Of a stretch of 32,000 nucleotides of DNA, positions 1,018-18,441 are shown in pieces. Under the pieces are notes generated by a model that saw only the letters and a list, made by a program, of their open reading frames with translations, had not been told where the DNA came from and ran no database searches. Source of the DNA: Candidatus Saccharimonadota bacterium (GTDB lineage Bacteria; Patescibacteriota; Saccharimonadia; Saccharimonadales; UBA4665); NCBI GenBank assembly GCA_963718045.1, contig OY970350.1, positions 270,001 through 302,000 on the forward strand. The letters are read 5' to 3'. The position numbers and the translations under genes were made by a program. Positions within the stretch are counted from its first letter, which is position 1. Each line of letters begins with the position of its first letter.

Positions 1018-1160
1018 AAATATAAAGAGTGCAGTGAGAGATCTAGCTCTGTGACCTGCCAGCAACCCGTTATGATGGGTGCTCCATCTAGTCCGCCATC
1101 GACGGAAAAGATATTTTGATATTTATCCTTTCTGAAGAGAACTGGCAGAAAGGATTTTTA
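1018..1160 (+). promoter_or_regulatory. SAM riboswitch (SAM-I clan / S-box) with terminator-antiterminator expression platform
   Basis: P1 AAAUAU 1018-1023 pairs with AUAUUU 1111-1116. Conserved AAGAG junction at 1025-1029. P2 is 1032-1034/1056-1058 plus 1037-1040/1047-1050, with a GA-rich internal loop. P3 is AGCAACCC...GGGUGCU (1061-1068/1077-1083), matching the GCAACC...GGUGC core. P2-loop CUAG (1043-1046) can pair with CUAG 1088-1091 as a pseudoknot. P4 is 1092-1095/1103-1106. An AAAGA junction precedes the 3' strand of P1. It sits directly upstream of metK. Confidence 0.8.
1125..1159 (+). terminator. Intrinsic terminator hairpin of the SAM riboswitch; it also sequesters the metK SD-like AAAGGA
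   Basis: 10-bp stem ATCCTTTCTG (1125-1134) / CAGAAAGGAT (1146-1155), 11-nt loop, T-run 1155-1159, ATG at 1163. The alternative antiterminator 1105-1113 / 1124-1132 pairs at 8 of 9 positions and uses the 3' strand of P1. Confidence 0.7.
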
Positions 1161-1162
1161 AT

Positions 1163-2131
1163 ATGAACCTAAGAACGGCTGAGTCGGTATCACCTAAACA
1201 TCCGGATAAAATATGCGACCAGATATCCGACAGTATTCTAGACGCGGCACTTAAAGTCGACCCTAGCTCTAGAGTTGCCATGGAAACAGTCGGCGGCCAT
1301 AAGCTGGTGGTGCTAATTGGCGAGGTTACATCAAAAGCCAAAATAGACTACGAAAAGATAGCCAGAAGATTTGTTGATGAGAGCTACAAGGTCATAGTTC
1401 GCATTGTTCATCAGAGCCCAGAGATTGCCAGCGGTATCGATACTGGTGGTGCTGGCGATCAAGGTATTATGGTTGGTTATGCCACAAATGAAACTGAAAA
1501 CCTCATGCCCTTAGAAGTTGATTTAAGCCGGTCGTTAAACCGTTTTATATATGATAAATTCCCTTATGACGGCAAAACTCAGATAACTACTTCTGACGGT
1601 AAAATAACGGCCATTGTTGCTAGCTTTCAGAATGCTAAAAAAGCCGAGCTTAAGGACATGATTAATGCCTGGGTTAATACCCAGCCGCATAGCTCCAAGG
1701 TTAATATATTCGCTAACCCAGCCGGAGATTGGGATATGGGTGGTTTTGATGCTGACAGCGGGTTAACCGGCCGAAAGATTGCTATAGACAGCTACGGTCC
1801 GCGTATACCTATTGGCGGCGGAGCATTCAGCGGCAAGGATGCCACTAAAGTTGATCGCTCGGCTGCCTATATGGCCCGTAAAATAGCTGTCGATTATTTA
1901 AAGAAGAATAATGCTCACGAAGTATATTGCCAGCTGGCTTATGCCATAGGCGTAATTGAGCCTGTAGAAGCAGTTGTAACTGTTGACGGTAAAGAGAGAA
2001 ATGTTAAGGGCTATGACCTTTCGCCTCACGGGATAATAAAGTTTTTGGAGCTAAATAAGCCTCAATTTGAAGTTACCGCCCAATACGGGCATTTTGGCAA
2101 CTCTTTTCTTTGGGATAGGCAGAGCTCCTAG
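1163..2131 (+). CDS. metK: S-adenosylmethionine synthetase (compact 322-aa form)
   Basis: Motifs SPKHPDKICDQISD, GAGDQG, GGGAFSGKDATKVDRSAAY and a YGHFG C-terminal block. Preceded by a SAM riboswitch. Confidence 0.9.
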   Translation: MNLRTAESVSPKHPDKICDQISDSILDAALKVDPSSRVAMETVGGHKLVVLIGEVTSKAKIDYEKIARRFVDESYKVIVRIVHQSPEIASGIDTGGAGDQGIMVGYATNETENLMPLEVDLSRSLNRFIYDKFPYDGKTQITTSDGKITAIVASFQNAKKAELKDMINAWVNTQPHSSKVNIFANPAGDWDMGGFDADSGLTGRKIAIDSYGPRIPIGGGAFSGKDATKVDRSAAYMARKIAVDYLKKNNAHEVYCQLAYAIGVIEPVEAVVTVDGKERNVKGYDLSPHGIIKFLELNKPQFEVTAQYGHFGNSFLWDRQSS

Positions 2132-2154
2132 TTACATATCTGAACAGGCTTGGC

Positions 2155-2892
2155 TCAGACGCTGACGAGCTCTTGAGCAGCACCGTAGTTACTTGTCAAG
2201 GCTACGGATAGTTTGCCTAAGTATGCGTGGTGGGGACCCGGCTGATCAATAATGCAAAGAGGGGTTTCATCTAAATTATCTAAACTGCTAGGGACAAGAA
2301 CATTACCTGAGTGGAGGGGTTCCCTTTTTTCAAGACCGAGGTCGTTTAGGCCGAGCCGAAGCCACGGGTCACGAACTGTAGTTAGTATGCGTCCTTTCAC
2401 AGTTCCATTAATATCTCTTTCCTGCTCTCTAAGGTTTTGGTTAGCAACAAACGATGCCAACGAAATCCACCCTTCCATTTGCTCCTCAACCCGAAGATGG
2501 CTTCCATATGGGGTGAGGAAGGCTAAATATTGATCTGGTGTAGTAATCGACCTGTCGGTTTCCGACATTAAGTACCGTCCGAGTGTAACCAGAAAACGAA
2601 ACTGGTCGATAAGATTTTCATGCTTAAATGGCCCCGACATGCCAGTTTTTCTGCCCGTAGCTGGAGAAGATATTTTTATTGCAGCCCCAGCCAGGCTTCT
2701 GACTTCGGAATATATACCTGAACCAATATAGTTGCTATGCTCTCTTAGAACGATTTCTGGAGCACTATTTCGGCACAGTTGGTCTGCCAACTCAATGAAT
2801 GAAGGATTTTCTTCAAGCCATGCTTCTCCCTTTTCGGAGCATACAAGAGCTCGAGCCCTAGCACTTTTTAGCTTATAAAGCTCACCTGCCAT
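2155..2892 (-). CDS. Hypothetical protein with a degenerate protein-kinase/RIO/APH-like motif series
   Basis: Gly-loop-like YIGSGIYSEV, then AAIKI (VAIK-like Lys), then LHSGNVLV (catalytic-loop Asn present, but Pro where the catalytic Asp is expected), then IIDQPG (DFG / RIO IDxxQ-like). The order and spacing fit a small kinase fold. Confidence 0.35.
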   Translation of the reverse strand: MAGELYKLKSARARALVCSEKGEAWLEENPSFIELADQLCRNSAPEIVLREHSNYIGSGIYSEVRSLAGAAIKISSPATGRKTGMSGPFKHENLIDQFRFLVTLGRYLMSETDRSITTPDQYLAFLTPYGSHLRVEEQMEGWISLASFVANQNLREQERDINGTVKGRILTTVRDPWLRLGLNDLGLEKREPLHSGNVLVPSSLDNLDETPLCIIDQPGPHHAYLGKLSVALTSNYGAAQELVSV

Positions 2893-3051
2893 AATAAAAC
2901 TGCCTGTCTTTAAGAATTATCTATCTGTGACGGCTAAACTATTACACAATATTGAAATAAAAGCAAATAACCATGCTTGCACTTTGACAGTATATTGCCT
3001 ACTATTGAGATTGCTAAAGGAGGTAAGAGCGCTACCGCTTTTAAAGTAACT

Positions 3052-4497
3052 ATGCAGTTTTTAAATGGACAACAACCCTCGTATGACCTTACCTTCAGAG
3101 ATGTTTTTATAACTCCTAATTTAAGCAATCTTGAGTCACGTTTTGATATCTCCATAAAACCAGTCGATAACCTAGGCATGACCATTCCTATAGTAGTAGC
3201 CAACATGAATGCTGTAGCCGGTAAACGGATGTCAGAAACTGTGGCACGGCGCGGCGGTCTGACTGTCTTGCCGCAGGATATGTCCCTGGATTTGGTGGCT
3301 AAGATCGTGTCCTATATTAAAGAGCGGCATCCGGTTTATGAAACTCCTGTTCTGCTTCATCCGTCAGACACCATAATGGATGCGATGAATATTATGTTTA
3401 AACGGGCCCATGGACTGGCGGTCATAGTAAATGATAAAAATGAACCAGTCGGTATATTCAGCGATGAGGACGGTGCGGGATACGATCGGTTTACAGAGCT
3501 TGCTTACGTTATGACGCAAAATCCGGTAACCGTTCCCTACGGCACGCCTCCAGCCGAGATATTTAACATTTTACATAAATCACATGTCACCATTGCCCCC
3601 GTCGTTAAGAACGGTAAGATAGCCGGCATTGTTAGCCAAAAGGGGCTGCTAAGGTCAGAAATATACGCACCTGCCTTAAATAAGAAAGGTAAACTACTAA
3701 CTGCTGTCGCAATCGGCATTAACGGTAATCCTAAAGAAAAAGCGGAACGTTTACTCAAGATGGGCGTTGACGTTCTTGTTATCGATACGGCTCATGGCTA
3801 TCAAGAAAAGACGATTAAAGCCATCAAAGCAGTTCGTTCCTTGTCATACGATGTACCCATAGTATCTGGCAATGTCGTGACTGCCGAAGCCACCCGTGAA
3901 CTTATTAAGGCCGGAGCCAATATAGTTAAGGTTGGTGTAGGCCCAGGAGCTATGTGTACCACTCGTATTATGACGGCTGTTGGACGTCCGCAGTTTAGCG
4001 CCGTGCTGGAGTGCGCCACGGCGGCTCGAGAACTTGGTGCTAACGTCTGGGCTGACGGTGGTGTTCGTTACCCCCGCGACGTGGTTCTAGCTTTGGCTGC
4101 AGGAGCAAGCAGCGTTATGGTCGGCACTATACTAGCTGCTACTTATGAGAGCGTAGGAGACACCCTGATTGATGAAGCAGGCCGCCTCTACAAAGAAAGT
4201 TTTGGTATGGCCAGCCGCCGAGCTGTTAAAGCTAGGATCAAGAATATACCGTTATTTGAACAAATGAAGAAAGAATTCTTCGAAGAAGGTATTAGTACCA
4301 GCAAATTATATATAAACGAAGAGCGGCCTGGTGCCGAAGATGTACTTGATTACATCGTAGCCGGCCTAAGGAGCGCAATTGCCTATAGCGGAGCCACTGA
4401 TCTAGACACTTTCTATGAGAAGGTGGTAGTCGGTATTCAGTCCCCGGCTGGCTTTGATGAAGGTAAACCGGTCGATAGCTCATGGGAAAGAACATGA
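3052..4497 (+). CDS. guaB1: IMP dehydrogenase-related protein, GuaB1 type (CBS-containing, probable GMP reductase)
   Basis: The N-terminus MQFLNGQQPSYDLTFRDVFITP, plus PIVVANMNAVAGKRMSETVARRGG and YKESFGMASRRAV...FEEGISTS, match my recollection of the actinobacterial GuaB1 subfamily. Cys loop GVGPGAMCTTR. CBS-pair-length insert. The start is moved from ORF-track TTG 2977 to ATG 3052. Confidence 0.8.
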   Translation: MQFLNGQQPSYDLTFRDVFITPNLSNLESRFDISIKPVDNLGMTIPIVVANMNAVAGKRMSETVARRGGLTVLPQDMSLDLVAKIVSYIKERHPVYETPVLLHPSDTIMDAMNIMFKRAHGLAVIVNDKNEPVGIFSDEDGAGYDRFTELAYVMTQNPVTVPYGTPPAEIFNILHKSHVTIAPVVKNGKIAGIVSQKGLLRSEIYAPALNKKGKLLTAVAIGINGNPKEKAERLLKMGVDVLVIDTAHGYQEKTIKAIKAVRSLSYDVPIVSGNVVTAEATRELIKAGANIVKVGVGPGAMCTTRIMTAVGRPQFSAVLECATAARELGANVWADGGVRYPRDVVLALAAGASSVMVGTILAATYESVGDTLIDEAGRLYKESFGMASRRAVKARIKNIPLFEQMKKEFFEEGISTSKLYINEERPGAEDVLDYIVAGLRSAIAYSGATDLDTFYEKVVVGIQSPAGFDEGKPVDSSWERT

Positions 4498-4502
4498 TAT
4501 TT

Positions 4503-5423
4503 CTATTGGGCTAAATTCCTATGCCTGTAGGCAATAAAACCGCCAGGTAACATTGGCAGCCAAAATGATATAAACCTATATAAAATTGTTGCTGCCACAG
4601 CATGAGTAACATTTAAACCGGAACTAGTTAGACCTAGTACTAAGGCAGCTTCAATGCCGCCTATGCCTCCCGGAGTTGGCATCATACCCCCCACTGTTGA
4701 TGCGACTATGTAAACGGCAATTGCATCCGTGAAACTAATGCCTGAACTAACCCCGAGTACTGAAACAAAGAGGGTTAAGCTAGAAAATAACGTGATTAAT
4801 AGTGAACCAATGAATAATGAAAGTATGGCGCGAACATTTCGGATACTTCTTAATGCTTTCTTCCCTTCCTGAAAAAAATCTCTGATCTTATTTCTATAGA
4901 AAATTAAGCCGAGTACGATAAGTAGAACAAGTAAAATAAAACCAACGAGGATCCATTTCTTATCAGGAGAGTTATGCATATAACTGATTATGTGTGTTAT
5001 TGCTGCCGGCGATATTACTACAAGCAATAAGCATGAAGTGATAAAACCAAATATGATTGGTAGTGTAGCGATAGTTAATGCAGTTGGTGATTTATCCCCC
5101 AGTTTCTTATAGTAAGCAGTAAGCAGACCCATACTGCCCAAATTTAAGGGAAATATCGAGTTAAGAAAATTCCCCTCCACTTCAATGGTAAATATTTTTT
5201 TAATTTTGCCGATAAAATTACCTGCCGAAAATTGGGTAAAACTAGCTGCCATAAAAACTAGTAACGTTAACACCAGGCCTAGTAAAATCCACCAATAGTC
5301 GGTGTGTTCAATAATTGCGAAAGTACCTTTTAATTGCTTAATTTGGGGAAGCAGAAAATAAAGTCCAACTAATCCGGCAACTAGAATTATAATTTGCCAA
5401 CGTTTAGCTTTTATATTCTTCAT
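4503..5423 (-). CDS. Polytopic membrane protein, LPG-synthase-TM / UPF0104 (flippase-like) family
   Basis: 306 aa with about 8 hydrophobic helices. The C-terminal MPTPGGIGGIEAAL motif is characteristic of this family. Confidence 0.6.
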   Translation of the reverse strand: MKNIKAKRWQIIILVAGLVGLYFLLPQIKQLKGTFAIIEHTDYWWILLGLVLTLLVFMAASFTQFSAGNFIGKIKKIFTIEVEGNFLNSIFPLNLGSMGLLTAYYKKLGDKSPTALTIATLPIIFGFITSCLLLVVISPAAITHIISYMHNSPDKKWILVGFILLVLLIVLGLIFYRNKIRDFFQEGKKALRSIRNVRAILSLFIGSLLITLFSSLTLFVSVLGVSSGISFTDAIAVYIVASTVGGMMPTPGGIGGIEAALVLGLTSSGLNVTHAVAATILYRFISFWLPMLPGGFIAYRHRNLAQ

Positions 5424-5546
5424 AACTAATCTGATTTTAACCCTTTAACGGTTTGTAATAAATAGGTACGGCTATTACAAATAGCAAACATATTTTAGTT
5501 TTTTCAACTGTAAGCACTACCGACACTATCGGCAAGTAGGAAAAGA

Positions 5547-8769: not shown

Positions 8770-9339
8770 ATGACAGATCTAGATGACGCTTTTAATAAAA
8801 TAGAACGTAAGAATTTCCTCCCGAGTTACGAGGTTAGCAACGCCCACCTCGACATTCCGATACCGATCGGGTTTGGGCAGACGAATAGTCAGCCTAGTAC
8901 TGTATATATGATGCTCGAATGGCTTGAACCTGTTTCAGGAGACAAAGTACTTGATGTAGGGTCTGGCTCTGGGTGGACAACTGCGCTGCTGGCTTGTCTG
9001 GTAGGCAGTAAAGGAAGTGTGTTTGGAGTAGAACGGATTAAGGAGCTTGTAGAATTTGGTAGAGAAAACTGCAAAAGGTTAGATATTAGGAATGTAAAAT
9101 TTTATTTGGCTGGGGATGAGTTTGGCTTAAAAAAATATGCACTATATGACCGAATATTAGTCAGTGCGTCATATGACAAAATACCAAAATCACTTATATA
9201 TCAGTTAAAAATTGGCGGGAAGATGGTTATACCTGTCAATAATGACATACTTGAAATTACAAAACTTTCTGATAACAACTTAGATATAATTACCCATCCA
9301 GGATTTGCTTTTGTCCCTTTAGTTAAAGGAAAGGGCTAA
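8770..9339 (+). CDS. pcm: Protein-L-isoaspartate O-methyltransferase
   Basis: R-x-x-F-L-P, GFGQTNSQPSTV (QTxSQP), SAM-binding VLDVGSGSGWTTALLA, YDRILVSA, and FVPLV at the C-terminus. ATG 8770 is preferred to TTG 8749. Confidence 0.85.
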   Translation: MTDLDDAFNKIERKNFLPSYEVSNAHLDIPIPIGFGQTNSQPSTVYMMLEWLEPVSGDKVLDVGSGSGWTTALLACLVGSKGSVFGVERIKELVEFGRENCKRLDIRNVKFYLAGDEFGLKKYALYDRILVSASYDKIPKSLIYQLKIGGKMVIPVNNDILEITKLSDNNLDIITHPGFAFVPLVKGKG

Positions 9340-9722
9340 TTTTTATTAACTTTACTAAACTCTTTACGCAGTTCAACCTTAGCTTGTTCTAGTATGGATT
9401 TCTGCTTAGCTGGCAATTTATTGCCGGATCGGTTGATATAAAAGTTTAACATTGACATAGCTGACTTATATGAACCGCTCTTTTTACGATTACTGTTTTC
9501 AGCAGAACGCTTCAGTGATTGTGCAATTATTTTTGGGCTGGTCAATGTGAATACTCCTTTTTCAAGGTCTAAGGCGTTGCTCGTTAAGCCAACTTGTTTT
9601 GACCAGTATTGTTGTTTCACTTTCTTATAATAAGTGGAAAATATATAAAAAATCCAATAAGCTGAATGCTTACTGGATTCTTCTTCAATATTCCTGCGCC
9701 AGTAGGCTTTTGAGAGCGGCAT
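9336..9722 (-). CDS. DUF3175-family protein
   Basis: WSKQVGLTSNALDLEKGVF...IAQSLKRSAENS...KSAMSMLNFYINRSGNKL...AKVELRKEF matches the DUF3175 consensus as I recall it. The start is uncertain. ATG 9722 overlaps the upstream gene by 38 nt. GTG 9620 (TATTAT box 6 nt upstream) would give an N-terminus closer to typical family members. Confidence 0.65.
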   Translation of the reverse strand: MPLSKAYWRRNIEEESSKHSAYWIFYIFSTYYKKVKQQYWSKQVGLTSNALDLEKGVFTLTSPKIIAQSLKRSAENSNRKKSGSYKSAMSMLNFYINRSGNKLPAKQKSILEQAKVELRKEFSKVNKN

Positions 9723-11442
9723 TTACCGGCTTAACACTGATGCCGCTGCTTTTTAAATAGACCATTTGCTGTTTAAACTGAGTTGGAGTAATCGCATATG
9801 CTGATTCTTCGTCGCTTGAAGGAGTGGTCGTGATGTCGTGGTAAACCAAAACTAGCCAGTCGTGATCGGTTTTTGCTTGGGTAATCCAAGACTGTACATC
9901 AGCTAGTGTGGTGGTCGGCAGGACCAAACGAGCATGAATCTGGTCAACATTAAGATTGGCCTTGGTGTTCATTTCGCCGTCTGTCGTGCGGTCGGATTGT
10001 TCGTACTGCATGATAGTCGGAGTCTCACTGGAGACGTATGAGCCGAAAGGGCTGGCGAAATCAGTTACCGGGTACTTCGAGCCTAAAATCTGTAGCAAGG
10101 TGACGTTATTGCCGGTTAGCTCACTGATGATCGTTGGTATGTCCAGTTCCACCATGTCCGATAAGTGGTAAAGATGAGAAGCGATTTCATTGCCGTCGGC
10201 AGCGGTTTTTACTAACTGGGCATCGGTCATATAGCCCGAAGTACCCAGTGTTCCGGCGGTGACGTAAAATGTGCAGTCGAAGCCTTCTTTGCTCAAAACA
10301 CTAACGGCATTGGTGTATTGATCGGCAAAATTATCATCAAGCGTCACGCTAACCATACCGCTACTGAAGGTAGCCGGTGTTTGGTTGGCCAGAGGCGTCA
10401 GAGCGACATCGGACAACGATACCATGCCTTCGCCACTGGTAGCCAGCACAATTTGCAAAGAAGCTGTCTTGGACGGAGTGACAAAATTATCCTGGTATTC
10501 CGACCAGGTCGGTGTTATTGTCCCGAATATTCCGGCGGTTGCCGGTGCCGACATTAGTGATACTGCCTGTGTTGTTCCATTGCTTAATGTTTCAATGACG
10601 TAGGCGTAAACGTAGGTCGTGCTTTCCTGCCAAAAACTCAGCTCGTAGCGTTGACTACTGAGCGGACTGGCGACAGTGGTTGTCCAGCCGGCTTCGTCAT
10701 TGATGGAACTGGTAGTCATACTGACTGCCGCTGCTCCGTTATAGCCATTGACGCTGTAGCCGTAAACTACCGGATCAGAGCCATAAGTTTGGGTTGTCCA
10801 GCTGGCCGGAGAGTCGGGATTGTCCGCGCAGGTTTGTTCAAAATTGCCGTTAGCTAGTCCGTTAATTAGAGTCGGCGTACAGGGGATGTCTTGAACCAGG
10901 CTGGTATCATCAATGATCAGCTGGCCGTTGGCGTTAAGGACATGAAAGACGGTTACCGTGCTGACACCGGTAGGGACAATGAAAGATTCGGCTATACTCT
11001 GCCAAGACGAACTTGCCGACTGGTTGCCTAGCCACTGGTAGGTCAGGTTGCCGTCGCTGCTGGCATATTGTGCCCAGATATTGGTGGTGACGCTTGACTC
11101 GCTCCAGTCGCTGTAAGTGTAGAAGTCACCGCTAGTTACTACCACAGGCGTAAACATCCATTTTGCATCACCACTGACATAGTCGGCGACGGTTGTTTCG
11201 GCTGAATAATTGCCGCTGTGGCCGGTATTTAAATATGTAAACGTGGCGATATTTGATCCCCAGGAATTGGTTGTCCAATCGTCCGGCTGGCCGGGGGTGG
11301 CGATCGAAGTTTCAAATCCCGGATTGGCGATCAGGTTAACTGGTGTCGAATCCAGAGCCTGAGCTTGCGCCAGCGGCATGATAGCTTCCATCGCCAAGAC
11401 CAAGCCAAGCGTTATTTTAATGCCCCTTGATAATACCTTCAT
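9685..11442 (-). CDS. Secreted polysaccharide deacetylase (CE4/NodB) with two N-terminal CBM4/9-like modules
   Basis: Sec signal peptide ending AQAQA. Two roughly 150-aa repeats each open with N-x-x-F-E (NPGFETS, NGNFEQT) and end with ...IDDTSL / ...LSDVAL. The C-terminal domain has VSVTLDDNFADQY (TFDD-type) and ASHLYHLSDM (HxxxH-type). SD AAAGGAG is upstream. Confidence 0.75.
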   Translation of the reverse strand: MKVLSRGIKITLGLVLAMEAIMPLAQAQALDSTPVNLIANPGFETSIATPGQPDDWTTNSWGSNIATFTYLNTGHSGNYSAETTVADYVSGDAKWMFTPVVVTSGDFYTYSDWSESSVTTNIWAQYASSDGNLTYQWLGNQSASSSWQSIAESFIVPTGVSTVTVFHVLNANGQLIIDDTSLVQDIPCTPTLINGLANGNFEQTCADNPDSPASWTTQTYGSDPVVYGYSVNGYNGAAAVSMTTSSINDEAGWTTTVASPLSSQRYELSFWQESTTYVYAYVIETLSNGTTQAVSLMSAPATAGIFGTITPTWSEYQDNFVTPSKTASLQIVLATSGEGMVSLSDVALTPLANQTPATFSSGMVSVTLDDNFADQYTNAVSVLSKEGFDCTFYVTAGTLGTSGYMTDAQLVKTAADGNEIASHLYHLSDMVELDIPTIISELTGNNVTLLQILGSKYPVTDFASPFGSYVSSETPTIMQYEQSDRTTDGEMNTKANLNVDQIHARLVLPTTTLADVQSWITQAKTDHDWLVLVYHDITTTPSSDEESAYAITPTQFKQQMVYLKSSGISVKPVNAALKSLLAQEY

Positions 11443-11455
11443 ATAACTAACTCCT

Positions 11456-12742
11456 TTACACTTTTAAATTATTAGCAGCGCCACTGCGTTCCGGAGAAAT
11501 CCAAGTAGTTCGCTGACCGGATACGCTCCTGGCCAGGTTCGGTAGCTTAATAGCTGTCAAAATCAAGGCGGCATATTCCGCCAAAGACATCAGGTACATG
11601 ACGATATACATTGCTGGCGCAAATACTGATAGACGCAGCCGGTCTTTAATGCTCAGATGGGCACTCGACCAGACGCAAACCAGGATGTAGCTGGTAATAA
11701 CTGCCAGAGCGGCCATTAAAGTGATTGAGCTATGGTAGTAAATACTGACAAAGATAATGAAAGTTACCACAATCGGCTCCAGTACAAACAACAGTTCCAT
11801 CAGCAGCGCATAGGGTAATATTACCCAAGTTAGAGCTTTGGAGTAGCGGTTGCCGCGGGCAAAGAACAGCTGGTAGTTTTTATAAAATGTCTGCAGACGG
11901 CCATATTTCCAGCGGTAGCGCTGGGTAATCAGGGACCGCAGCGAAGGCACCGCTTCGGTATAGGTAATGCAATCGGCCGCATAAAGGATTCGGTCCTGCT
12001 TGTTGCCGCGGGCAATAATCTTCATCGTCAGATCGATATCCTCGGTCATGGTATTAGTGTCGTAATAGCCGACTTGCTCCAATTTTTGGCGCCTAAACAT
12101 GGAACCGATGCCGCCGATAATGTATTCGATACCGTATATGGTCTGGGCTTTTTTCATATGGTAAGCAATCAAGTATTCAAAGCGCTGGGCTAAACCAAGG
12201 ATTGAACCATTTTCAATAATGTTGACGTTGCTGGCTAGGGCTACTACTCGCCTGTCGCGGAAATAAGCCACTGCTTTTTTGACAGCGTCGGGGGCAATCA
12301 GCGAATCAGCGTCCAGACACATAACTAAAGTGCCGCTGGCTTTATTGCGAATGGTGTTATTGAGTACACTGGCCTTGCCGCCGTTACGTTGCCCATAGAG
12401 TACCATATTGATTTCACCTTTATGGGCCTTGATAAATTTTTGGATAATTTTTGACGTTCCGTCGGTCGAGCCGTCGTTGACTAAAATGATTTGCAGTTTG
12501 CTTTTGGGGTATTTCAGCTTTGCCAGGCATTCCAAAGTTTTTTCGATAACTGGCGCTTCGTTATGGGCCGGGACGATCAGGCTGACGCTTGGCCGATATG
12601 GTCGTTTGGCCCTACGCTTGCCTGACTTGGTACTCTTAATGCCGTAAATGTCGCTGCCCACCAGATAGATTGTCATGCGTATAATGTTGAAAATACTCAT
12701 GCCGATGATGTAGGTTATAAGAATTTTCATGAAACCGTTCAT
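11456..12742 (-). CDS. Processive family-2 glycosyltransferase (PgaC/IcaA/cellulose-chitin-synthase type polysaccharide synthase)
   Basis: N-terminal TM plus 3-4 C-terminal TMs. Motifs LIVPAHNE, LVNDGSTDGT, CLDADS, TEDIDLT and QRYRWKYG (Q-R-x-R-W). Confidence 0.8.
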   Translation of the reverse strand: MNGFMKILITYIIGMSIFNIIRMTIYLVGSDIYGIKSTKSGKRRAKRPYRPSVSLIVPAHNEAPVIEKTLECLAKLKYPKSKLQIILVNDGSTDGTSKIIQKFIKAHKGEINMVLYGQRNGGKASVLNNTIRNKASGTLVMCLDADSLIAPDAVKKAVAYFRDRRVVALASNVNIIENGSILGLAQRFEYLIAYHMKKAQTIYGIEYIIGGIGSMFRRQKLEQVGYYDTNTMTEDIDLTMKIIARGNKQDRILYAADCITYTEAVPSLRSLITQRYRWKYGRLQTFYKNYQLFFARGNRYSKALTWVILPYALLMELLFVLEPIVVTFIIFVSIYYHSSITLMAALAVITSYILVCVWSSAHLSIKDRLRLSVFAPAMYIVMYLMSLAEYAALILTAIKLPNLARSVSGQRTTWISPERSGAANNLKV

Positions 12743-13419
12743 ACGTTTGCCCCGCTGGCCAGGATCTGGTTAGTACTTATATTCGTTACGCTGATCAAAT
12801 GGAAGTACATGACGTGACGAAACTGATACCACAGACCAGTGCAGGTCATCAGTTCAACCGGGTTGCCGATGTTGGCTTGGCTCAGGATGGCACTATCGGT
12901 CGGCGGCACAATAGCTGAATCGGCGTAGTAATAGCTGAAACGGTAGCCATTGTTGGTGTTAATGGTCATCAGATCACCGTAAACCAGTTGCGAGGTCTTG
13001 ATTAAAATGCCGGGGATATCATGGCCGTAGAGAAAAGTAACTTGTTTTTGGTCGGTGGAGATAATGGGGTTGGGATTAATGTTGTTATCGGTAAAAACGT
13101 CTTCACTGTTAAGCGTCCAGGTCTGCGAAGCTGGCCGGTAAAAACCCGGCATAATCGGTAAATTAATGCTCAGACGGTTAATCGACAAGGAGATCGGCGT
13201 GCCGCTGATTAGTGGCACTGCCGCCGCTGCTGCGGCAGGGCTCTCGGGAGTGGTTTTTAAGTACTGCATCAGCTGGGTTTTAACTACATAGACAGCGTGA
13301 TCGTGATTGATAATTGGCACTACTATCAGGCTGAGTATGCCCAAGTATACCAGTACCACTAGCGTGTAAAGCCTTAGCTGTGGTTTACGAAGAAACGCCA
13401 AATGTGTGCCTGTATTCAT
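12739..13419 (-). CDS. Sortase-family transpeptidase
   Basis: N-terminal TM anchor. TFLYGHD (His), L-x-x-GD-x-x-x-I, VELMTCTG (TLxTC-type Cys), and Arg in YQFRHVMY about 9 residues after the Cys. The order and spacing are as in sortases. The stop overlaps the GT2 start (ATGA). Confidence 0.65.
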   Translation of the reverse strand: MNTGTHLAFLRKPQLRLYTLVVLVYLGILSLIVVPIINHDHAVYVVKTQLMQYLKTTPESPAAAAAAVPLISGTPISLSINRLSINLPIMPGFYRPASQTWTLNSEDVFTDNNINPNPIISTDQKQVTFLYGHDIPGILIKTSQLVYGDLMTINTNNGYRFSYYYADSAIVPPTDSAILSQANIGNPVELMTCTGLWYQFRHVMYFHLISVTNISTNQILASGANV

Positions 13420-13458
13420 GGTACCATTAAAGCCTGGCCAGGTTTAACTGCAATAAGG

Positions 13459-13650
13459 TTAGTTGCTATGATAGTGTGTAACAATATTCTTGATAACCTT
13501 GCTCAGGATGACAATCATCGCACAAACAATGGCTACAATAATTACATACGATACCAGCATGCTTCCGTGGGTGAAGGGTAATACAACTGCGCCGGTGGCT
13601 ACTGTCCCGGCACTGGCTACGTTACCACCACCTACTACAGATCCGCTCAT
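13459..13650 (-). CDS. 63-aa protein consisting essentially of an LPxTG-like sorting signal (LPFTHG + TM helix + basic tail)
   Basis: SD GAGGAG lies 6 nt upstream of the ATG, with a promoter 40-70 nt upstream. The sequence is MSGSVVGGGNVASAGTVATGAVV-LPFTHG-SMLVSYVIIVAIVCAMIVILS-KVIKNIVTHYHSN. The N-terminal 23 residues carry no charge and there is no signal peptide. Confidence 0.55.
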   Translation of the reverse strand: MSGSVVGGGNVASAGTVATGAVVLPFTHGSMLVSYVIIVAIVCAMIVILSKVIKNIVTHYHSN

Positions 13651-13690
13651 TCCTACTCCTCATCAACAGTTCTTTAGTTGAATAATATAT

Positions 13691-13719
13691 ATAGTAATGA
13701 ATAGATGCAGAACTGTCAA
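13691..13719 (-). promoter_or_regulatory. Sigma70-type promoter TTGACA-17 nt-TACTAT for the sortase/GT2 operon
   Basis: On the reverse strand, TTGACA is at 13719-13714, the spacer is 17 nt, and TACTAT is at 13696-13691. The leader to ATG 13650 is about 33 nt. Confidence 0.55.
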
Positions 13720-14005
13720 CTATATTGTAATACTGGTTATGGTAAACAATTTTTTGATATTTGTGATACTAGGTTGCGTTGTATGGTCATACTTGTTGTA
13801 CCCCTATAAATTATGTGGTAATAGAATCCAGGAGGCAACCATCCCTTCGTGGCAAGCAACATTTGATGCTTAATATTAGCTCCCCCTAGCTGACATGTTA
13901 CGAACCAAATACTATTTAAATATAACTAATATAGCTACGCAACTGACGTCTATTAAATTAGAATTAAGTAATGGATTGCGTTGGGATTAATTAAGTATCC
14001 TGGTG

Positions 14006-15010
14006 TTAGTCGTGTAACCATTCCCAATTATGCACGTTATGCTGTACCCAGCTTATACAATCTCCCTGATTTTTAAAGCTTGGTTTAGTAAAATCCTTCC
14101 ATCCATCAACCTTGCACTGGAATAATCTATAGGGAGTTTTACAATTTATATTCCATACCACTATGTATTTATTGCTCAGTAAGTTTGTAAAACTCGGTGC
14201 AGTTTTATTATGTACTCTGGTTGTTTCTGCCTGCGCTAACGTATTACCCGTAGAGTAGCCCTCCAGGGCATAAGGAGCACCGTCTAAAGTACATTTCGTG
14301 GCAACAGTCGAACCCATTACTTCATTAGTGGCGTAATTAGCACCTAGAGACATATTGCTGGTAGTCGCCATATACGAGTTAGGATTATTAAAACCAGCGG
14401 GGCCTAAGTTGTACGTACCTGAACCAGTGCTGATGTTAGTAGCGCTCCACGAAGATGCCATAGGAAATGAGATATTGTTAGCGTTAACCGTAGTTGCCTG
14501 TTCGCCATCAATGAATTTGTCGATTGTAACAGTCACAGTGTATGGAGTTGCTGTACCTGTCGGCATTGTAAAAGATTGGCAATTGTTATCTACGCTACCC
14601 GAAACCGAGCCATCAGATTCAATAGTCCCAATGCCATCTAACGTATATCCAGCATTTGAGCCTGTATATACTAATGTAAAGCTTATGCTATCGCCACTTA
14701 CATTACCTGTAATGTTCCAGGTATATGTATTATCGGCGTTATAGTAACCAGTTCCTGAAAAATTTCCTGTATTGTTTTCTGAAATTGTATTCAATGTGTG
14801 TGCATAGTCTGCGCCTCCACAACTAAATGTAATCTGGCTCGGAGCATTAATCTCCCAGTTGGGTAGTGGTAACGCGGTAGCGTTGGCAGTGCTAAAAGTA
14901 GCTAACGATAGGCCTCCGCTTCCCAATAATAGTCCGAACACTGATAATGCAATGAATACTTTCTTTCTTAGTTTCTGTATGCCTGTACGCACATTATAAT
15001 GATACCGCAT
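14006..15010 (-). CDS. Hypothetical secreted protein, Cys-containing, N/T/S/G-rich
   Basis: SD AAGGAGG lies 5 nt before ATG 15010, so the ORF-track start 15031 is rejected. Signal/anchor KLRKKVFIALSVFGLLLGSGGLSLATFSTANA. The C-terminal block is C-x11-C-KVDGWKDF...FKNQGDC. No enzymatic motif seen. Confidence 0.6.
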   Translation of the reverse strand: MRYHYNVRTGIQKLRKKVFIALSVFGLLLGSGGLSLATFSTANATALPLPNWEINAPSQITFSCGGADYAHTLNTISENNTGNFSGTGYYNADNTYTWNITGNVSGDSISFTLVYTGSNAGYTLDGIGTIESDGSVSGSVDNNCQSFTMPTGTATPYTVTVTIDKFIDGEQATTVNANNISFPMASSWSATNISTGSGTYNLGPAGFNNPNSYMATTSNMSLGANYATNEVMGSTVATKCTLDGAPYALEGYSTGNTLAQAETTRVHNKTAPSFTNLLSNKYIVVWNINCKTPYRLFQCKVDGWKDFTKPSFKNQGDCISWVQHNVHNWEWLHD

Positions 15011-15111
15011 ATAACCCTCCTTAATTATCATTTACATTGTATCACTATATTTTTGCTAAAAATACTTATGTATTAAATAGAATTTTATTAATTAACTTTT
15101 ATAATTATGTC

Positions 15112-15186
15112 TGGCTCCGGAGGCCGGATTCGAACCGGCAACCATCGCCTTAACAGGGCGTTGCTCTACCGTTGAGCTACTCCGGA
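15112..15186 (-). tRNA. tRNA-Asn: tRNA-Asn (anticodon GTT), CCA encoded
   Basis: The reverse strand reads TCCGGAG-TA-GCTC-AACGGTA-GAGC-A-ACGCC-CTGTTAA-GGCGA-TGGTT-GCCGG-TTCGAAT-CCGGC-CTCCGGA-G-CCA. This is a 75-nt cloverleaf with a 7-bp acceptor stem, a GTTCGAAT T-loop and anticodon GTT. Confidence 0.9.
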
Positions 15187-15261: not shown

Positions 15262-16248
15262 TTAGCTGGCTAGGATTGTCTCAAGATCAATAGTGGCCGT
15301 ACAGATTCTGGTGTCTCCTGCTCCGTAGTAAAGTCTAATAACATCATCCTCTTCAAGGACTGCACCACAGCAAAAGATAGCTTTAGGCAAATCATTTTCC
15401 TCAGCTAGCTCATTAATATCGTTATCTGACATACTGCGAAGTGCCTGATACCCTCCCGGTATAAGATCGGCATAACCAATGGTTTCGTATTTTTCCTCTG
15501 GTTCAAGTATTGGTTTATTGCAGCGCCACAAAACTTCCATTGGGTCACTCGGACTAAGCAGTGCAGCTCCCAGCCGGTAGGTTCGCTTATCGCTAATTTC
15601 ATCAATGCCATGATAGAAAACCAGCCAGCCCTTAGCAGTACGGATTGGTGGCGGTCCCATTTCTACATAGGCCGCATCGAATAAACCGGGCCTAGCACTA
15701 ATTACTGGAATGGATATAGGATGCCATTTCATAAAGTCGTCTGACATGGCAGGCCATATATGATTATCGCCAAACAATAGGTAGTGGCGGCCATTAATTA
15801 TTTCCGGCAATATGGCCGCTGCCTTTGACCAATCGACTGGCAGGTTTTCCCTTTGGGGGTGAGCAAGTCTAGGAAATAATAGGTTGTGTTTTTGCCAGTG
15901 ATAGAGATCGGGGCTGGAAGCCATGGCTGCTCGGGCCGTTTTACCGTCGTAAGCTGTATATGTTGTGAAGTACTTGCCTTCAATGTACACCATTCTGGGG
16001 TCTTCACAGCCCTTATCTTCCCAAGGATTTTCGGGAAAGATAACTGGTTCAGGTTCGATTTTAAAGTCAACGCCATTATCGCTAGTTGCCAGTAGGATTC
16101 GGGAAATCCAATCTTCGCCAACTCCTCTAAAGAGCATGTGATATCTGCCTTCTCTTTTAACTACTGTTGGATTATAAACTTTTTTAGGGTACCACTTGCT
16201 GCTGGGATCGCCGGATATTATGGGATTATTGGCATAGCGCTTAAGCAT
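15262..16248 (-). CDS. GH130-family glycoside phosphorylase/hydrolase (beta-mannoside type)
   Basis: MLKRYANNPII...VYNPTVV...RYHMLFRGVG...CEDPRMVYIEGKYFTTYTAYDG fits the GH130 five-bladed propeller pattern. Confidence 0.75.
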   Translation of the reverse strand: MLKRYANNPIISGDPSSKWYPKKVYNPTVVKREGRYHMLFRGVGEDWISRILLATSDNGVDFKIEPEPVIFPENPWEDKGCEDPRMVYIEGKYFTTYTAYDGKTARAAMASSPDLYHWQKHNLLFPRLAHPQRENLPVDWSKAAAILPEIINGRHYLLFGDNHIWPAMSDDFMKWHPISIPVISARPGLFDAAYVEMGPPPIRTAKGWLVFYHGIDEISDKRTYRLGAALLSPSDPMEVLWRCNKPILEPEEKYETIGYADLIPGGYQALRSMSDNDINELAEENDLPKAIFCCGAVLEEDDVIRLYYGAGDTRICTATIDLETILAS

Positions 16249-16282
16249 ACATATAGTGTATACGATATAGGAATATTTAATG

Positions 16283-17245
16283 CTAGATTGTTGTTCTTAG
16301 GTCTAACATAAGCAGCGACAGCAGCAGACAAATATTCGATTCAGCGCCACTGTTATAGTGGACGCCACCTCTATCGATTCCGTCATAGCATTTTAAGGTC
16401 AAAGGATCATACATTCTTTCTTTCTTAATGTTATGGCCGTCAAACCACTCCTGCCATTTTTTTGCTTGGACGAAATACTTTTCCTGCCCGAAGCATTGGT
16501 AGGCGGCCAGCCAAGCCCAAATCATATAGGCGGCATCAATCGGCTGCTGGGAATATTCGGGAACAACCGTGGCCGACTTAGCCAGCCAGCCTTCGTTACC
16601 GATTGGTCCTAAGATGTGTCCGCCAAGTTCGCACTTGGACTCTAAAAACTGGCATACTTTCAAGCCGAATTGGCTGATTGTCTTATCACCGCTAACTAGC
16701 CCGTAGCGCAGCAGTGCGTATGGGATTATCCCATTGCCATAAGTCATAACTGGTTCAGGCCACAGCCATTTATGATCTGTGTCGGCAAAAAAAGACAGTA
16801 ATTTGTCGGCCAGTTTTTTTGACAGATCATTATCGAAGTAGACTGTTCCTAACAGGGCGTAAGCATAGCCTCGCATATGTTCAAACTTCATAATAGTTGG
16901 CCAGCAAGTTTCTATAATCTCTTTAATTTCTTTGCGGTGGAAGTCCAATGAATAAGCAAAACCCAGAGACCAAATTACCTCGCCAATGGCGTCTTCGGAA
17001 GCTGGATATTGTATTAATTTATGTTTATCTGTGGCAAAACCGTAAAAGCTTTGATTGTAACGGGATTTTTTAATGTATTTAAAGAGCACTTCGGCCTGCT
17101 TAGTTTTTTGAAGAGCTAAGCAAAGCAGCAGACCTCTGGCGGCATCGTCAAGGGCGTAACCTTCACCCTTATAGATGGTTTGCCCGTCAGTATGCTGCCA
17201 GATGCCATAATCATCTATTAAGCTGTCAAAGAACGGTGTGTTCAT
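16283..17245 (-). CDS. Hypothetical protein, possibly an (alpha/alpha)6-barrel glycan-active enzyme
   Basis: 320 aa, soluble, W/Y/A-rich helical repeats (ALDDAARGLL, YALLRYGL, AYMIWAWLAAY). The ATGA overlap with the upstream GT4 stop implies co-expression. The fold call is a guess. Confidence 0.3.
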   Translation of the reverse strand: MNTPFFDSLIDDYGIWQHTDGQTIYKGEGYALDDAARGLLLCLALQKTKQAEVLFKYIKKSRYNQSFYGFATDKHKLIQYPASEDAIGEVIWSLGFAYSLDFHRKEIKEIIETCWPTIMKFEHMRGYAYALLGTVYFDNDLSKKLADKLLSFFADTDHKWLWPEPVMTYGNGIIPYALLRYGLVSGDKTISQFGLKVCQFLESKCELGGHILGPIGNEGWLAKSATVVPEYSQQPIDAAYMIWAWLAAYQCFGQEKYFVQAKKWQEWFDGHNIKKERMYDPLTLKCYDGIDRGGVHYNSGAESNICLLLSLLMLDLRTTI

Positions 17246-18441
17246 TGGGCCTTTATAATATAATCCTCAATTATTTTTAAGTAAGCTTTGCCGACAACTG
17301 GCCAGGACATCTTCTTAACGTAAGGCAAGAGGCTTTTTCTGGTCCTTTTTTGCAAGTCAGTATCATCGATTAGGCGGTTGACGGCATAGACAATACCGTC
17401 TGGATCCTCAAAGGGTACTAAGAGGCCGCGGTTTCTAGCCAGCAGTTCCTGGGCGTATCTGTAGGGGGTGGAAATGATTAGCAAGCCTGTGCCAACAGCA
17501 TAAGCCAAGGTTCCCGAAGCTGCTTGTTCAGGGTCGCGGTGCGGCGTTAAGTAAATATCAGCTGCGGACATATACTCCATTAACTCTTCAGTTTCCAGAT
17601 ATTTATTAATAAATGTCAGATGACTTTCTACACCAAGCTCTTTAGCTAGGGCCATTAAGCTTTTACGGTAGGTTTCATCATTAGTTGCCAGAACCTGAGG
17701 ATGAGTTTGGCCAATCACAAGAAGCTGAACATTAGGGTGTTTTTGAAGTATTTTTGGCATTCCCTTAATAACAAGATCAATGCCTTTATTAGGGCTCATC
17801 AGGCCGGTAATAACGAGGTAAAAGTTATTGGCATCAAGGTTTAGATCCTTAAGTATTTGGGAGCGGCTTTTGCCAACTTTATTAGGTACGCCGTGATGAA
17901 TTACGACTATCTTGTTTTCTTCTATTTGGTAATCGGCACAAAGAATTCTTTTAGAGTCCTGACTCATGGTAACAACCATAGTGGAGTGGTTAGCAATTTT
18001 ACGGGTAACTTCCTTGCGGTCTGGATCGGGATAAGGCAGAACAGTATGCATGGTCGTTATTGTCAGTGCGTTTAGGGAATTAAGTAGAGCAAAAATATTA
18101 TCTCCGGTCGGGTCCACATGGTGAACGCCGTCATGGATAAACTTGGTCCACTTACCTCCGAACAAGCCAAACTCGTGCTGAAGTAATACCGCGTCAAGGT
18201 TCAGCTGGTTAAGTACCGTTGCAGCCTGGCGGTACGAGCTTTTCGAATTATCCTTCAGCACGGCGACAACGTTATGGCCGTAAACATATGATTCGTTAGC
18301 TTTTTCGGCGGCCACAACAACCACTTTAGTGTTTGGCAGACTGAACTTAATACCGTCAATCAGGTCACGGCTAAAAGTAGCAATCCCGCACTTCTTGGGA
18401 AGAGAGGAACAGATAAAACCTAAACGCAGATCACTACGCAT
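17242..18441 (-). CDS. Family-4 (GT-B, group 1) glycosyltransferase
   Basis: 399 aa. The C-terminal half has GIDLVIKGMPKILQKHPNVQLLVIG and the E-x7 region PEQAASGTLAYAVGTG...ISTP typical of Glycos_transf_1. Confidence 0.75.
   Translation of the reverse strand: MRSDLRLGFICSSLPKKCGIATFSRDLIDGIKFSLPNTKVVVVAAEKANESYVYGHNVVAVLKDNSKSSYRQAATVLNQLNLDAVLLQHEFGLFGGKWTKFIHDGVHHVDPTGDNIFALLNSLNALTITTMHTVLPYPDPDRKEVTRKIANHSTMVVTMSQDSKRILCADYQIEENKIVVIHHGVPNKVGKSRSQILKDLNLDANNFYLVITGLMSPNKGIDLVIKGMPKILQKHPNVQLLVIGQTHPQVLATNDETYRKSLMALAKELGVESHLTFINKYLETEELMEYMSAADIYLTPHRDPEQAASGTLAYAVGTGLLIISTPYRYAQELLARNRGLLVPFEDPDGIVYAVNRLIDDTDLQKRTRKSLLPYVKKMSWPVVGKAYLKIIEDYIIKAQ

Follow-up and report, generated by a model that had tools for sequence, protein, structure and literature searches.

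A previously undescribed family of tiny Saccharimonadia proteins made of little more than a sortase signal and encoded with a sortase and a polysaccharide synthase

Background

By definition, a sortase substrate is a secreted protein in which a signal peptide comes first, then a folded passenger, and at the C-terminus a sorting signal. The protein considered here has only the last of these. It is encoded on the minus strand at positions 13459..13650 of a stretch of 32,000 nucleotides (hereafter the window) from a Candidatus Saccharimonadota bacterium (assembly GCA_963718045.1, contig OY970350.1, positions 270,001 to 302,000), where it precedes genes for a sortase, a PgaC-like glycosyltransferase of family 2 (GT2) and a polysaccharide deacetylase of carbohydrate esterase family 4 (CE4). 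It is a member of a hitherto undescribed family of very small proteins from Saccharimonadia (TM7), each of which amounts to hardly more than the signal for a sortase. Full-text literature searches on sortases of Saccharibacteria and Patescibacteria, on LPXTG proteins without signal peptide and on sortases in operons for poly-N-acetylglucosamine (PNAG) returned no description of the family or of the module, and searches on sortases with glucosamine or aminoglycoside nucleophiles likewise yielded nothing that describes either.

The LPXTG proteins and their sortases (models TIGR01167 and PF00746) are the obvious standard of comparison. The mini-LPXTG proteins, as we will call them, share with these the tripartite layout of motif, about 21 hydrophobic residues and a tail with Lys or Arg, their partner is a cysteine transpeptidase with the triad and fold of a sortase, and relatives with the canonical LPNTGG motif reach or approach the cutoffs of the models. 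They differ in having neither signal peptide nor passenger, only a sorting signal preceded by a conserved 17-33-residue head, in tolerating His, Ser or Ala at the P1' position (the following Gly being better conserved), and in a transmembrane (TM) segment that is conserved in register. Their sortase, moreover, lies outside the NCBIfam classes, and the module forms one unit with an operon for a polysaccharide synthase. Membrane insertion without a signal peptide is known from single-span proteins of the Pf3 coat type, which use the YidC pathway, adopt an N-out orientation and have a short N-tail that can be translocated. The small protein resembles them in its size, its short and weakly charged N-tail, its one TM helix and its basic C-terminus, although there is no homology between them.

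The neighbouring genes recall the IcaADBC and PgaABCD systems for PNAG, or polysaccharide intercellular adhesin, in which a small membrane protein is likewise encoded together with a PgaC/IcaA-like GT2 and a CE4 de-N-acetylase that is secreted. In contrast to these, the module in the window includes a sortase, and its small protein spans the membrane once, not twice, and has a conserved sortase motif. A second parallel is provided by PEP-CTERM/exosortase (EpsH), a C-terminal sorting system linked to exopolysaccharide, whose proteins, as a rule, possess signal peptides and passengers of various kinds (Haft et al. 2006, PMC1569441). PEP-CTERM/EpsH and the XrtG/PEF-CTERM system of Gram-positive bacteria have in common with our module a signal composed of motif, TM segment and basic tail, and a processing enzyme that is genetically tied to exopolysaccharide synthesis. 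The enzyme in the window is, however, a sortase and not an exosortase, and the motif is LPxT and not PEP or PEF, which makes this an analogy only, not a membership. Finally, GspA of Actinomyces oris is a glycan-bearing sortase substrate, which is secreted and glycosylated by an LCP phosphotransferase (PMC6381275). There, too, the function of a sortase substrate is bound to a glycopolymer, which GspA carries to the wall; the module studied here, by contrast, contains no LCP gene, its protein has only about 60 amino acids, and its glycosylation would be purely hypothetical.

Results

The gene at 13459..13650 (-) was called in six independent assemblies and has homologues, as detailed below. It encodes 63 amino acids and a stop codon, and its translation, MSGSVVGGGNVASAGTVATGAVVLPFTHGSMLVSYVIIVAIVCAMIVILSKVIKNIVTHYHSN*, is identical to the sequence given in the first-pass annotation of the window. 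The head (residues 1-23, MSGSVVGGGNVASAGTVATGAVV; 13582..13650, -) is rich in Gly, Ala, Val, Ser and Thr, contains no Asp, Glu, Lys or Arg, and is predicted to be extracytoplasmic. It is followed by the sorting motif LPFTHG (residues 24-29; 13564..13581, -), recognised by its conservation in the family and composed of L24-P25-F26-T27, then His28 in place of Gly, then Gly29; canonical sortase chemistry places the predicted scissile bond between Thr27 and His28. A TM segment of 21 hydrophobic residues (30-50, SMLVSYVIIVAIVCAMIVILS; 13501..13563, -) leads to a basic, probably cytoplasmic tail with K51 and K54 (residues 51-63, KVIKNIVTHYHSN; 13459..13500 including the stop codon, -). The protein thus has the hydrophobic span directly after the motif and the K51/K54 tail of a sorting signal, and neither an N-terminal Sec signal nor a passenger domain. 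Searches of Pfam and NCBIfam gave no meaningful domain match.

The first-pass annotation had suggested a prediction of topology, and this places a single TM helix after the motif. Crude sums on the Hessa scale, which are position-independent approximations, amount to -4.2 kcal/mol for residues 31-49 (MLVSYVIIVAIVCAMIVIL) and to between +4 and +6.5 for every window of 15-21 residues in the head, and it is this negative sum after the motif, together with the positive sums in the head, that argues for one TM helix. On the same scale no window of the head resembles a TM helix or an h-region. A hairpin topology with the head as first TM helix was also considered and was rejected on account of the positive sums. 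AlphaFold2 modelled a helix at residues 31-62 (pLDDT 74-86), while the head stayed below a pLDDT of 50, i.e. unmodelled.

The absence of a signal peptide is not an artefact of the chosen start codon. An in-frame stop lies three codons 5' of the ATG, the frame from stop to stop measuring 66 codons (13459..13659, -), so that no signal peptide can be hidden by a wrong start; in the relatives of loci L010, L021, L020 and L008 the corresponding frames are 61-68 codons long and the same holds. The view of the first-pass annotation, that the protein has no signal peptide and only 23 residues before its motif, is therefore borne out by the frame lengths in the window and in four relatives. A Shine-Dalgarno (SD) sequence, GAGGAG (13656..13661, -), is located 5 nt before the ATG, and an AGGAG or GGAG box at equal spacing was found in all ten homologous loci inspected. 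Upstream of it, a sigma-70-like promoter match, TTGACA-17 nt-TACTAT (13691..13719, -), agrees with the consensus at 10/12 positions and is the top site in a 4.9-kb scan. The good SD sequence and the separate promoter that had been proposed earlier are accordingly present, in the sense of consensus matches, which for promoter, SD and terminator alike are not proof of function. An Rfam search of the 355-nt upstream region, and also of 13400-14100, detected no element and no riboswitch (e.g. none for cyclic di-GMP).

Considered in isolation, the motif would mean little. At the amino-acid frequencies of the window, 0.015 chance occurrences of LPxT are expected in 60 sites and 0.0015 in the 6 sites before the TM segment, which shows that the earlier estimate of a few percent was about right and which makes the lone sequence weak evidence. 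Nowhere else in the 32 kb of the window is there a C-terminal sorting signal that would be credible; the second match to the pattern is a 52-codon frame antisense to genes.

Evidence from relatives had to be obtained by way of the sortase. A word-index search with the small protein alone returned only itself, in six assemblies of up to 832 kb, and relatives were therefore collected from the neighbourhoods of sortase homologues: open reading frames (ORFs) near these were aligned, and a profile search and then an exhaustive search with a hidden Markov model (HMM) followed. A scan of a genome collection returned only the already known locus. A metagenome scan with the sortase alignment added no more than two close loci and a distant one. 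An ORF of 60-67 codons was found just upstream of sortase and GT2 in every contig inspected. In five such ORFs, when aligned, LPFTHG, Y35, V36, A40, C43, S50, K51 and K54 are invariant, and the profile search revealed relatives with LPFTSG (P0015), LPFTGG (P0016, which is encoded beside the sortase P0006) and LPNTGG (P0018). The exhaustive HMM search of 1.84 billion representatives yielded, at E<=1e-3, 125 cluster representatives, whose length is 55-67 aa with few exceptions; none exceeds 139 aa, and 111 have at most 72 aa. The idea that the mini-protein is a piece of some longer LPXTG protein was considered too, and was rejected because no long protein with such a C-terminus is among the 125 matches.

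Judging from the alignment, the LPFT match in the window protein is not fortuitous, because LPx[T/A/S] occurs in the same register, at a fixed distance from the TM helix, in 124 of the 131 family sequences examined. The consensus of the family reads M[S/Y]G..G.VLGASTTAAGxAV-LPNTGGN-TM-K/R tail, LPNTGG being the commonest form of the motif. Among the 124 motif-bearing sequences Leu and Pro are invariant (both are required by the selection pattern); position 3 is mostly Asn (69), Phe (21) or Tyr (8), and position 4 is Thr in 118. Position 5 is occupied by Gly in 69, Ser in 30, Ala in 12 and His in 9, position 6 by Gly in 96, and position 7 by Asn in 77 and Ser in 27. The closest relatives of the window protein have Ser (P0015, L013 and L014) or Gly (P0016) in place of His, and since LPFTSG and LPFTGG are thus the nearest forms, the His-Gly pair can be regarded as a clade-specific P1' variant of canonical LPXTG. 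The oddity that had been pointed out in the window protein is real, then, but peculiar to a clade and no defining feature of the family.

The TM helix and tail are conserved as well. The alignment anchored on the motif is free of gaps, with conserved V-13, G-11, G-4, A+16, I+17, G+20 and S+26, of which G+20 corresponds to C43 in the clade of the window. Two or more Lys or Arg are present in 110 of 111 tails, the median number of Asp plus Glu being 0, and K51 and K54 do not vary within the close clade.

Several relatives link the family to the known anchor models. P0148 passes TIGR01167 (16.9 against a cutoff of 15.9) and bears the NCBI name 'LPXTG cell wall anchor domain-containing protein' (Candidatus Saccharimonadia); with PF00746, P0030, P0052 and P0148 score 14.6-15.8, below the cutoff of 20. 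Other relatives align below threshold to the starts of the anchor models, from positions 1-2 of TIGR01167 and 4-8 of PF00746. The window protein and its LPFTHG relatives match neither model and are annotated as 'hypothetical'. In locus L007 a gene caller annotated a 95-aa antisense ORF (2981-3268, -) in place of the conserved mini-LPXTG gene (3099-3287, +), and such wrong-strand calls, together with His or Ser at position 5, have hidden the family from annotation.

Comparison of codons indicates that the small ORF is a real, translated, protein-coding gene under purifying selection. Pairwise ratios of nonsynonymous to synonymous substitution rates (dN/dS) among eight close homologues are mostly 0.05-0.35, with dS near or past saturation. 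Expressed as proportions of differing sites, pN/pS is 0.54 in the head, 0.10 in the motif and 0.43 in TM helix and tail; with a pN of 0.078 at a pS of 0.81 in the motif, it is the peptide and not the DNA that is under selection. One could object that the ORF is untranslated and owes its conservation to an element of RNA or DNA that precedes the sortase gene, as the lack of a match to any curated family and the antisense frame picked by one gene caller in L007 might suggest. This we regard as scarcely credible: amino acids are kept while synonymous sites approach saturation, an SD box was found in every locus inspected, Rfam gave no match, and 125 protein clusters agree in length and register.

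In the 39 nt that separate the small gene from the sortase gene there is a perfect palindrome, CCTGGCCAGG (13424-13433), which is not kept in other loci, and no conserved RNA structure was found between the two genes in the LPFTHG clade. Directly 3' of the small gene in three distant loci there are GC-rich hairpins (-22 to -32 kcal/mol) with T-runs (L019:5187-5252, L021:5190-5269 and L022:5181-5263). These may be leaky terminators that set a high ratio of substrate to enzyme, and such hairpins would fit a substrate made in excess of its enzymes.

The head is 17-33 residues long across the family (median 22) and is composed mainly of Gly (22%), Ala (16%), Val (14%), Thr (12.5%) and Ser (12%). 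The N-termini of 111 sequences begin with MSG (35), MYG (21) or MTG (8), Gly3 being present in at least 64; G-4 occurs in 88 of the 111, and Thr or Ser is favoured at positions -9, -8 and -7. With regard to what the first-pass annotation had proposed to look for in homologues, LPxT is conserved, as shown above, whereas a head wholly without Asp, Glu, Lys and Arg occurs in only 42 of 111; in 94, the stretch of 14 residues that leads up to the motif is free of charge. Nor is the internal GGG of the window head conserved, L010 having SPVTQ and L017 TPVTH there.

This bears on the earlier suggestion that the Gly-rich head itself acts as the nucleophile. An internal Gly cannot do so, and the GGG in question is not kept, which leaves only a hypothetical version with the N-terminal alpha-amine. 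Under this version the alpha-amine of a second copy would attack, yielding a head-to-tail polymer of 27-residue units, in which the LPXTG end is regenerated as in pili and which might lie within the polysaccharide as a hydrophobic layer similar to silk or chaplins; intramolecular attack would give a cyclic 27-mer. Sortases polymerise pilins and cyclise LPXTG peptides with an N-terminal Gly in vitro, and the chaplin fibres of Streptomyces depend on a cellulose-synthase-like GT2; the conserved N-terminus, the beta-sheet- or silk-like composition of the head, and the hairpins after the small gene in three loci, which suggest a stoichiometric structural subunit, would also agree with such a product. 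An N-terminal Gly would, however, need extra processing, given that removal of Met leaves Ser or Thr and MYG keeps its Met. Lys is absent from the window head and present in only 24 of 111 heads; nor does the protein have the Ig-like (CnaB/CnaA) body of sortase-assembled pilins. The best structural matches of the sortase, finally, are housekeeping enzymes of class A and not the lidded polymerases of class C. We consider polymerisation or cyclisation quite improbable.

The sortase gene (12739..13419, -) starts 39 nt after the stop codon of the small gene and encodes a membrane-anchored protein of 226 aa, which matches the Pfam Sortase family at 2.1e-6 (PF04203; score 28.0 against a cutoff of 26.6). 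H133, C193 (within MTC[TS]G) and R201 are invariant in nine sortase homologues, whose N-termini align at the 226-aa start. The AlphaFold2 model (pLDDT 75.8) consists of a TM helix at 13-56 and then a beta-barrel, and Foldseek returned as best matches the class A enzymes SrtA of Streptococcus pyogenes and S. agalactiae (E 7e-9, probability 1.0); the list includes structures with LPATS and LPATA peptides, i.e. of enzymes that tolerate Ser or Ala at P1'. The protein has the His-Cys-Arg triad, TLxTC-like Cys motif, barrel fold and N-terminal membrane anchor of a sortase. None of the NCBIfam sortase class models fitted (TIGR01076 at E 0.008, 16 against 39 bits; class C at E 0.084, 12.6 against 160), and the best sequence match in the PDB is SrtD of Clostridium perfringens (4d70, 1.5e-5), the enzyme being remote from every solved sortase. 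Homologues were found at 41-66% identity, one of them named as Candidatus Saccharimonadales. These features point to a dedicated and divergent sortase with an intact catalytic triad.

Two further sortase genes deserve mention. In L010:9883-10651 (-), from the Saccharimonadales metagenome-assembled genome DATKHC01, a second, longer sortase gene (306 aa) is situated 4 kb from the module, and the sortase of the module is thus an additional, dedicated enzyme there. In L015:3001-4387 a distant sortase of the candidate phyla radiation (28% identity) stands beside a 285-aa protein with a signal peptide that ends in GQVLGLAATGEEK, a TM segment and a basic tail (LAATGE); the pairing of that sortase with an ordinary substrate implies that the mini-substrate is specific to the sortase lineage of the window. 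A GQVLG... stretch before the motif of the L015 protein resembles the GQVLGAST... consensus of the mini-protein heads.

Linkage was counted by tblastn and called genes in 12 distinct loci with enough flank. The sortase adjoins the small gene in 11 of them, directly downstream at a distance of 37-77 nt, even though in the distant LPNTGG loci L019, L020 and L022 it is only 26-35% identical to the enzyme of the window. Homologues without LPxT or without linkage to sortases, either of which the first-pass annotation would have taken as a refutation, are the opposite of what the 124 of 131 sequences and these 11 of 12 loci display. A PgaC-like GT2 is adjacent in 12/12 loci (35-83% identical to that of the window), and a CE4 deacetylase is present downstream, upstream or divergently in 9-10 of the 12, it being not seen in L009 and L021, while L017 does not extend far enough to show it; in L009 the gene that follows the GT2 is no CE4 deacetylase and has no Pfam match. 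The unannotated neighbours in L019-L022 share no family. In L002, from a strain of the window species, a restriction-modification system of helicase and methylase (1037-5488) is located directly upstream of the small gene and replaces genes for a 341-aa secreted protein, GH130 and GT4, with the boundary at the promoter region of the small gene. The small gene stays with the operon there despite the differing upstream context.

In assemblies of sample ERZ25039544 some genes of the module are interrupted or shortened. In L003:8209-9965 two pieces of 191 and 344 aa make up the deacetylase, and on a second contig (L006:1755-4708) sortase (158 aa), GT2 (352), deacetylase (347) and DUF3175 protein (69) are all truncated. 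These could be assembly indels or a decaying second copy.

The constancy of the synthase also raises the question of whether the small protein is a subunit of it. In L021:5001-6535 the small gene (motif LPITGG, acidic-basic tail ...DLLEKKRGN) is followed by a strong hairpin with T-run and then directly by the GT2. An IcaD/PgaD-like membrane partner with a fortuitous LPFT match was the third of the alternatives originally proposed; its tie to the synthase is confirmed by the 12/12 loci, but the fortuitous match is refuted, and the protein is no homologue of IcaD or PgaD, since the NCBIfam models TIGR03932 and TIGR03940 gave no match at E<=10 in the window protein and nine relatives. A modified version would have the membrane helix as the functional part, an obligatory subunit or activator of the synthase, with the sortase clipping the head as a switch or to mark turnover and the released or ligated head having no role of its own. 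Apart from the gene order, this would fit the absence of any other small membrane protein in the module for the part of IcaD/PgaD, and the residues A+16, I+17, G+20 and S+26 of the TM helix, which form a small-xxx-small packing pattern. A remnant with a function of its own has been found in Streptococcus gordonii, where, according to work cited in PMC11326707, the cleaved remnant of a sorting signal is sensed by a histidine kinase. The protein has one TM helix and not the two of IcaD/PgaD, however, and its head is conserved in register (G-4 in 88/111, G-11, V-13) and under purifying selection, which is hard to explain if the head is discarded. We therefore hold this version to be unlikely; being compatible with cleavage by the sortase, it overlaps with the explanation that we prefer more than it replaces it.

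The synthase itself is a processive GT2 of 428 aa (11456..12742, -), resembling PgaC/IcaA, with a match to PF00535 at 2e-29 and a gene that overlaps the stop of the sortase gene by 4 nt. It matches the PgaC_IcaA model TIGR03937 at 4e-54 with 184 bits, far below the equivalog cutoff of 422 bits. The model of the XrtG-associated glycosyltransferase, TIGR03111, is likewise matched below its cutoff, at 1.5e-33, which adds to the similarity with the exosortase systems. The translated GT2 contains the QRYRW motif, a signature of processive synthases, and residues 44-357 align to BcsA. The following gene (9685..11442, -) encodes a secreted CE4 polysaccharide deacetylase of 585 aa, with a Sec-type signal (MKVLSRGIKITLGLVLAMEAIMPLAQAQA), an N-terminal region of carbohydrate-binding-like repeats and a PF01522 domain at residues 360-469 (2.8e-11; HfsH-like at 2e-15); a sequence search of the PDB with it found nothing. 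Neither it nor any other real gene product of the window has a sorting signal.

These two enzymes speak against a diffusible product. Hydrolysis of the acyl-enzyme could release the 27-residue peptide as a signal or antimicrobial, in a pathway akin to those of ribosomally synthesized and post-translationally modified peptides, with the GT2 glycosylating a Ser/Thr-rich peptide. The operon does have the layout of one for a precursor peptide (small gene, leaky terminator, enzymes), the centre of the head is rich in Ser and Thr, as the preference at -9, -8 and -7 shows, and the glycosyltransferases of glycocins are GT2-family enzymes. Yet the GT2 is a multi-TM, processive enzyme with QRYRW that aligns to PgaC and BcsA, not a soluble one of the SunS type, the secreted CE4 deacetylase with its carbohydrate-binding-like repeats points to a polymer, and no transporter, immunity or regulator genes were found in the loci inspected. 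A released peptide is accordingly very improbable, even more so than the polymer or cyclic peptide discussed above.

The operon in the window is completed by a DUF3175 gene (9336..9722, -; Pfam 6e-37), which shares 38 nt with the 3' end of the deacetylase gene and is confined to the window species, so that four genes (sortase, GT2, deacetylase and DUF3175) are tightly packed after the small gene on the same strand. Upstream of the module lies a gene for a 341-aa protein with an N-terminal signal or anchor (14006..15031, -), without match in Pfam or NCBIfam and found beside the module only in the window species. A tRNA gene (15115-15186, -) separates it from a region (15262-18441, -) where genes for a GT4 glycosyltransferase, for an unannotated protein of 320 aa and for a GH130 protein like mannoside phosphorylases form a second sugar-related cluster, which is not linked to the module in other species. 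At the other end of the window, an S-adenosylmethionine riboswitch (1017-1117, +; 50.3 bits) precedes a metK-like gene (1163-2131).

Discussion

The conserved motif, register, TM helix and tail, and the triad-bearing sortase downstream in 11/12 loci, favour the first of the alternatives originally put forward, a minimal sortase substrate. We consider the small protein to be a dedicated sortase substrate without passenger and without signal peptide, acting by the mechanism given below, with a probability of roughly 0.7; that it is processed by a sortase, whatever the fate of the product, seems more probable still.

According to this mechanism, the single C-terminal helix (30-50) would insert with the Lys-rich tail inside, and the weakly polar N-tail of 29 residues would be flipped out in the manner of the Pf3 coat, an N-out/C-in orientation expected from the positive-inside rule and from insertion of the Pf3-coat/YidC type. 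The LPFTHG motif would thereby be placed at the outer face of the membrane, where the co-transcribed sortase would cut after Thr27 and form a thioester with Cys193, as motif, catalytic triad and gene linkage suggest; a peptide of the motif region, GAVVLPFTHGSM, would be the expected cleavage substrate of the adjacent enzyme. The resulting 27-residue peptide, SGSVVGGGNVASAGTVATGAVVLPFT (or the form with Met1), would then pass to a primary amine of the envelope.

Candidate acceptors are the peptidoglycan cross-bridge, which is the canonical one, glucosamine amines of the deacetylated polymer, the N-terminus of another copy, and water. From the fixed association of the gene with a PgaC-like synthase, and in most loci with a CE4 deacetylase, it follows that the peptide probably works with the polymer of that synthase. 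It could do so when attached to peptidoglycan, where it would dock or anchor the polysaccharide, or when ligated directly to the glucosamine amines produced by the deacetylase. Sortase A accepts amino sugars in vitro, and an acceptor of this kind would fit the linkage with the deacetylase. The natural acceptor would then not be peptidoglycan, and the genes for small protein, sortase, synthase and deacetylase would, all four together, produce outside the cell an exopolysaccharide decorated with a ribosomal peptide. Such ligation, or alternatively a peptide handle that fixes the polysaccharide covalently to the wall, is nevertheless a tentative and on the whole doubtful proposition. The 36-residue remnant in the membrane, with its small residues conserved in register, may in addition pack against the synthase or the sortase; these residues and the gene order of L021 suggest contact with the synthase.

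Several observations weigh against the proposed mechanism. We know of no sortase substrate without signal peptide, and the library search turned up none either, so that the insertion step depends on the analogy with N-tails of the YidC type. The window protein itself has no match to the LPXTG-anchor models TIGR01167 and PF00746 even at E<=10, and it has His where canonical substrates have Gly. Its TM helix is conserved more position-specifically than the helix of a generic sorting signal requires. Neither a sortase nor a deacetylase is encoded within 8.5 kb of the small gene of L021; either the sortase lies elsewhere in that genome or the small protein is used with the synthase alone, and the tightest partnership may therefore be that with the synthase. 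Lastly, linkage was counted over 12 loci only, and the taxonomy of the family rests on three named records, all of them Saccharimonadia or Saccharimonadales.

Conclusions

At least 125 sequence clusters consist of a sorting signal and a head of about 20 residues only, and occur with their own divergent sortase inside a polysaccharide synthase operon. For annotation this means that LPXTG models miss variants with His, Ser or Ala at position 5, which are then labelled 'hypothetical'. On present sequence evidence the module hints at a route, so far unstudied, by which a short peptide could be attached to the envelope of the cell or to its coat of sugars. If cleavage takes place as proposed, sortases would handle signal-less substrates of the YidC type, and a short ribosomal peptide, instead of a protein, could be their cargo. 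If the peptide is also ligated to the polysaccharide or serves as its handle, this would be the first natural conjugation of a polysaccharide by a sortase, and no earlier sortase substrate would have been exported in the absence of a signal peptide. The Saccharimonadia live by contact with other surfaces, yet very little is known of the chemistry of their envelope, and the link with synthase and de-N-acetylase makes the retention of exopolysaccharide on their surface directly testable; if the proposal holds, a composite of peptide and glycan would be part of the surface layer that these epibionts present to their hosts.

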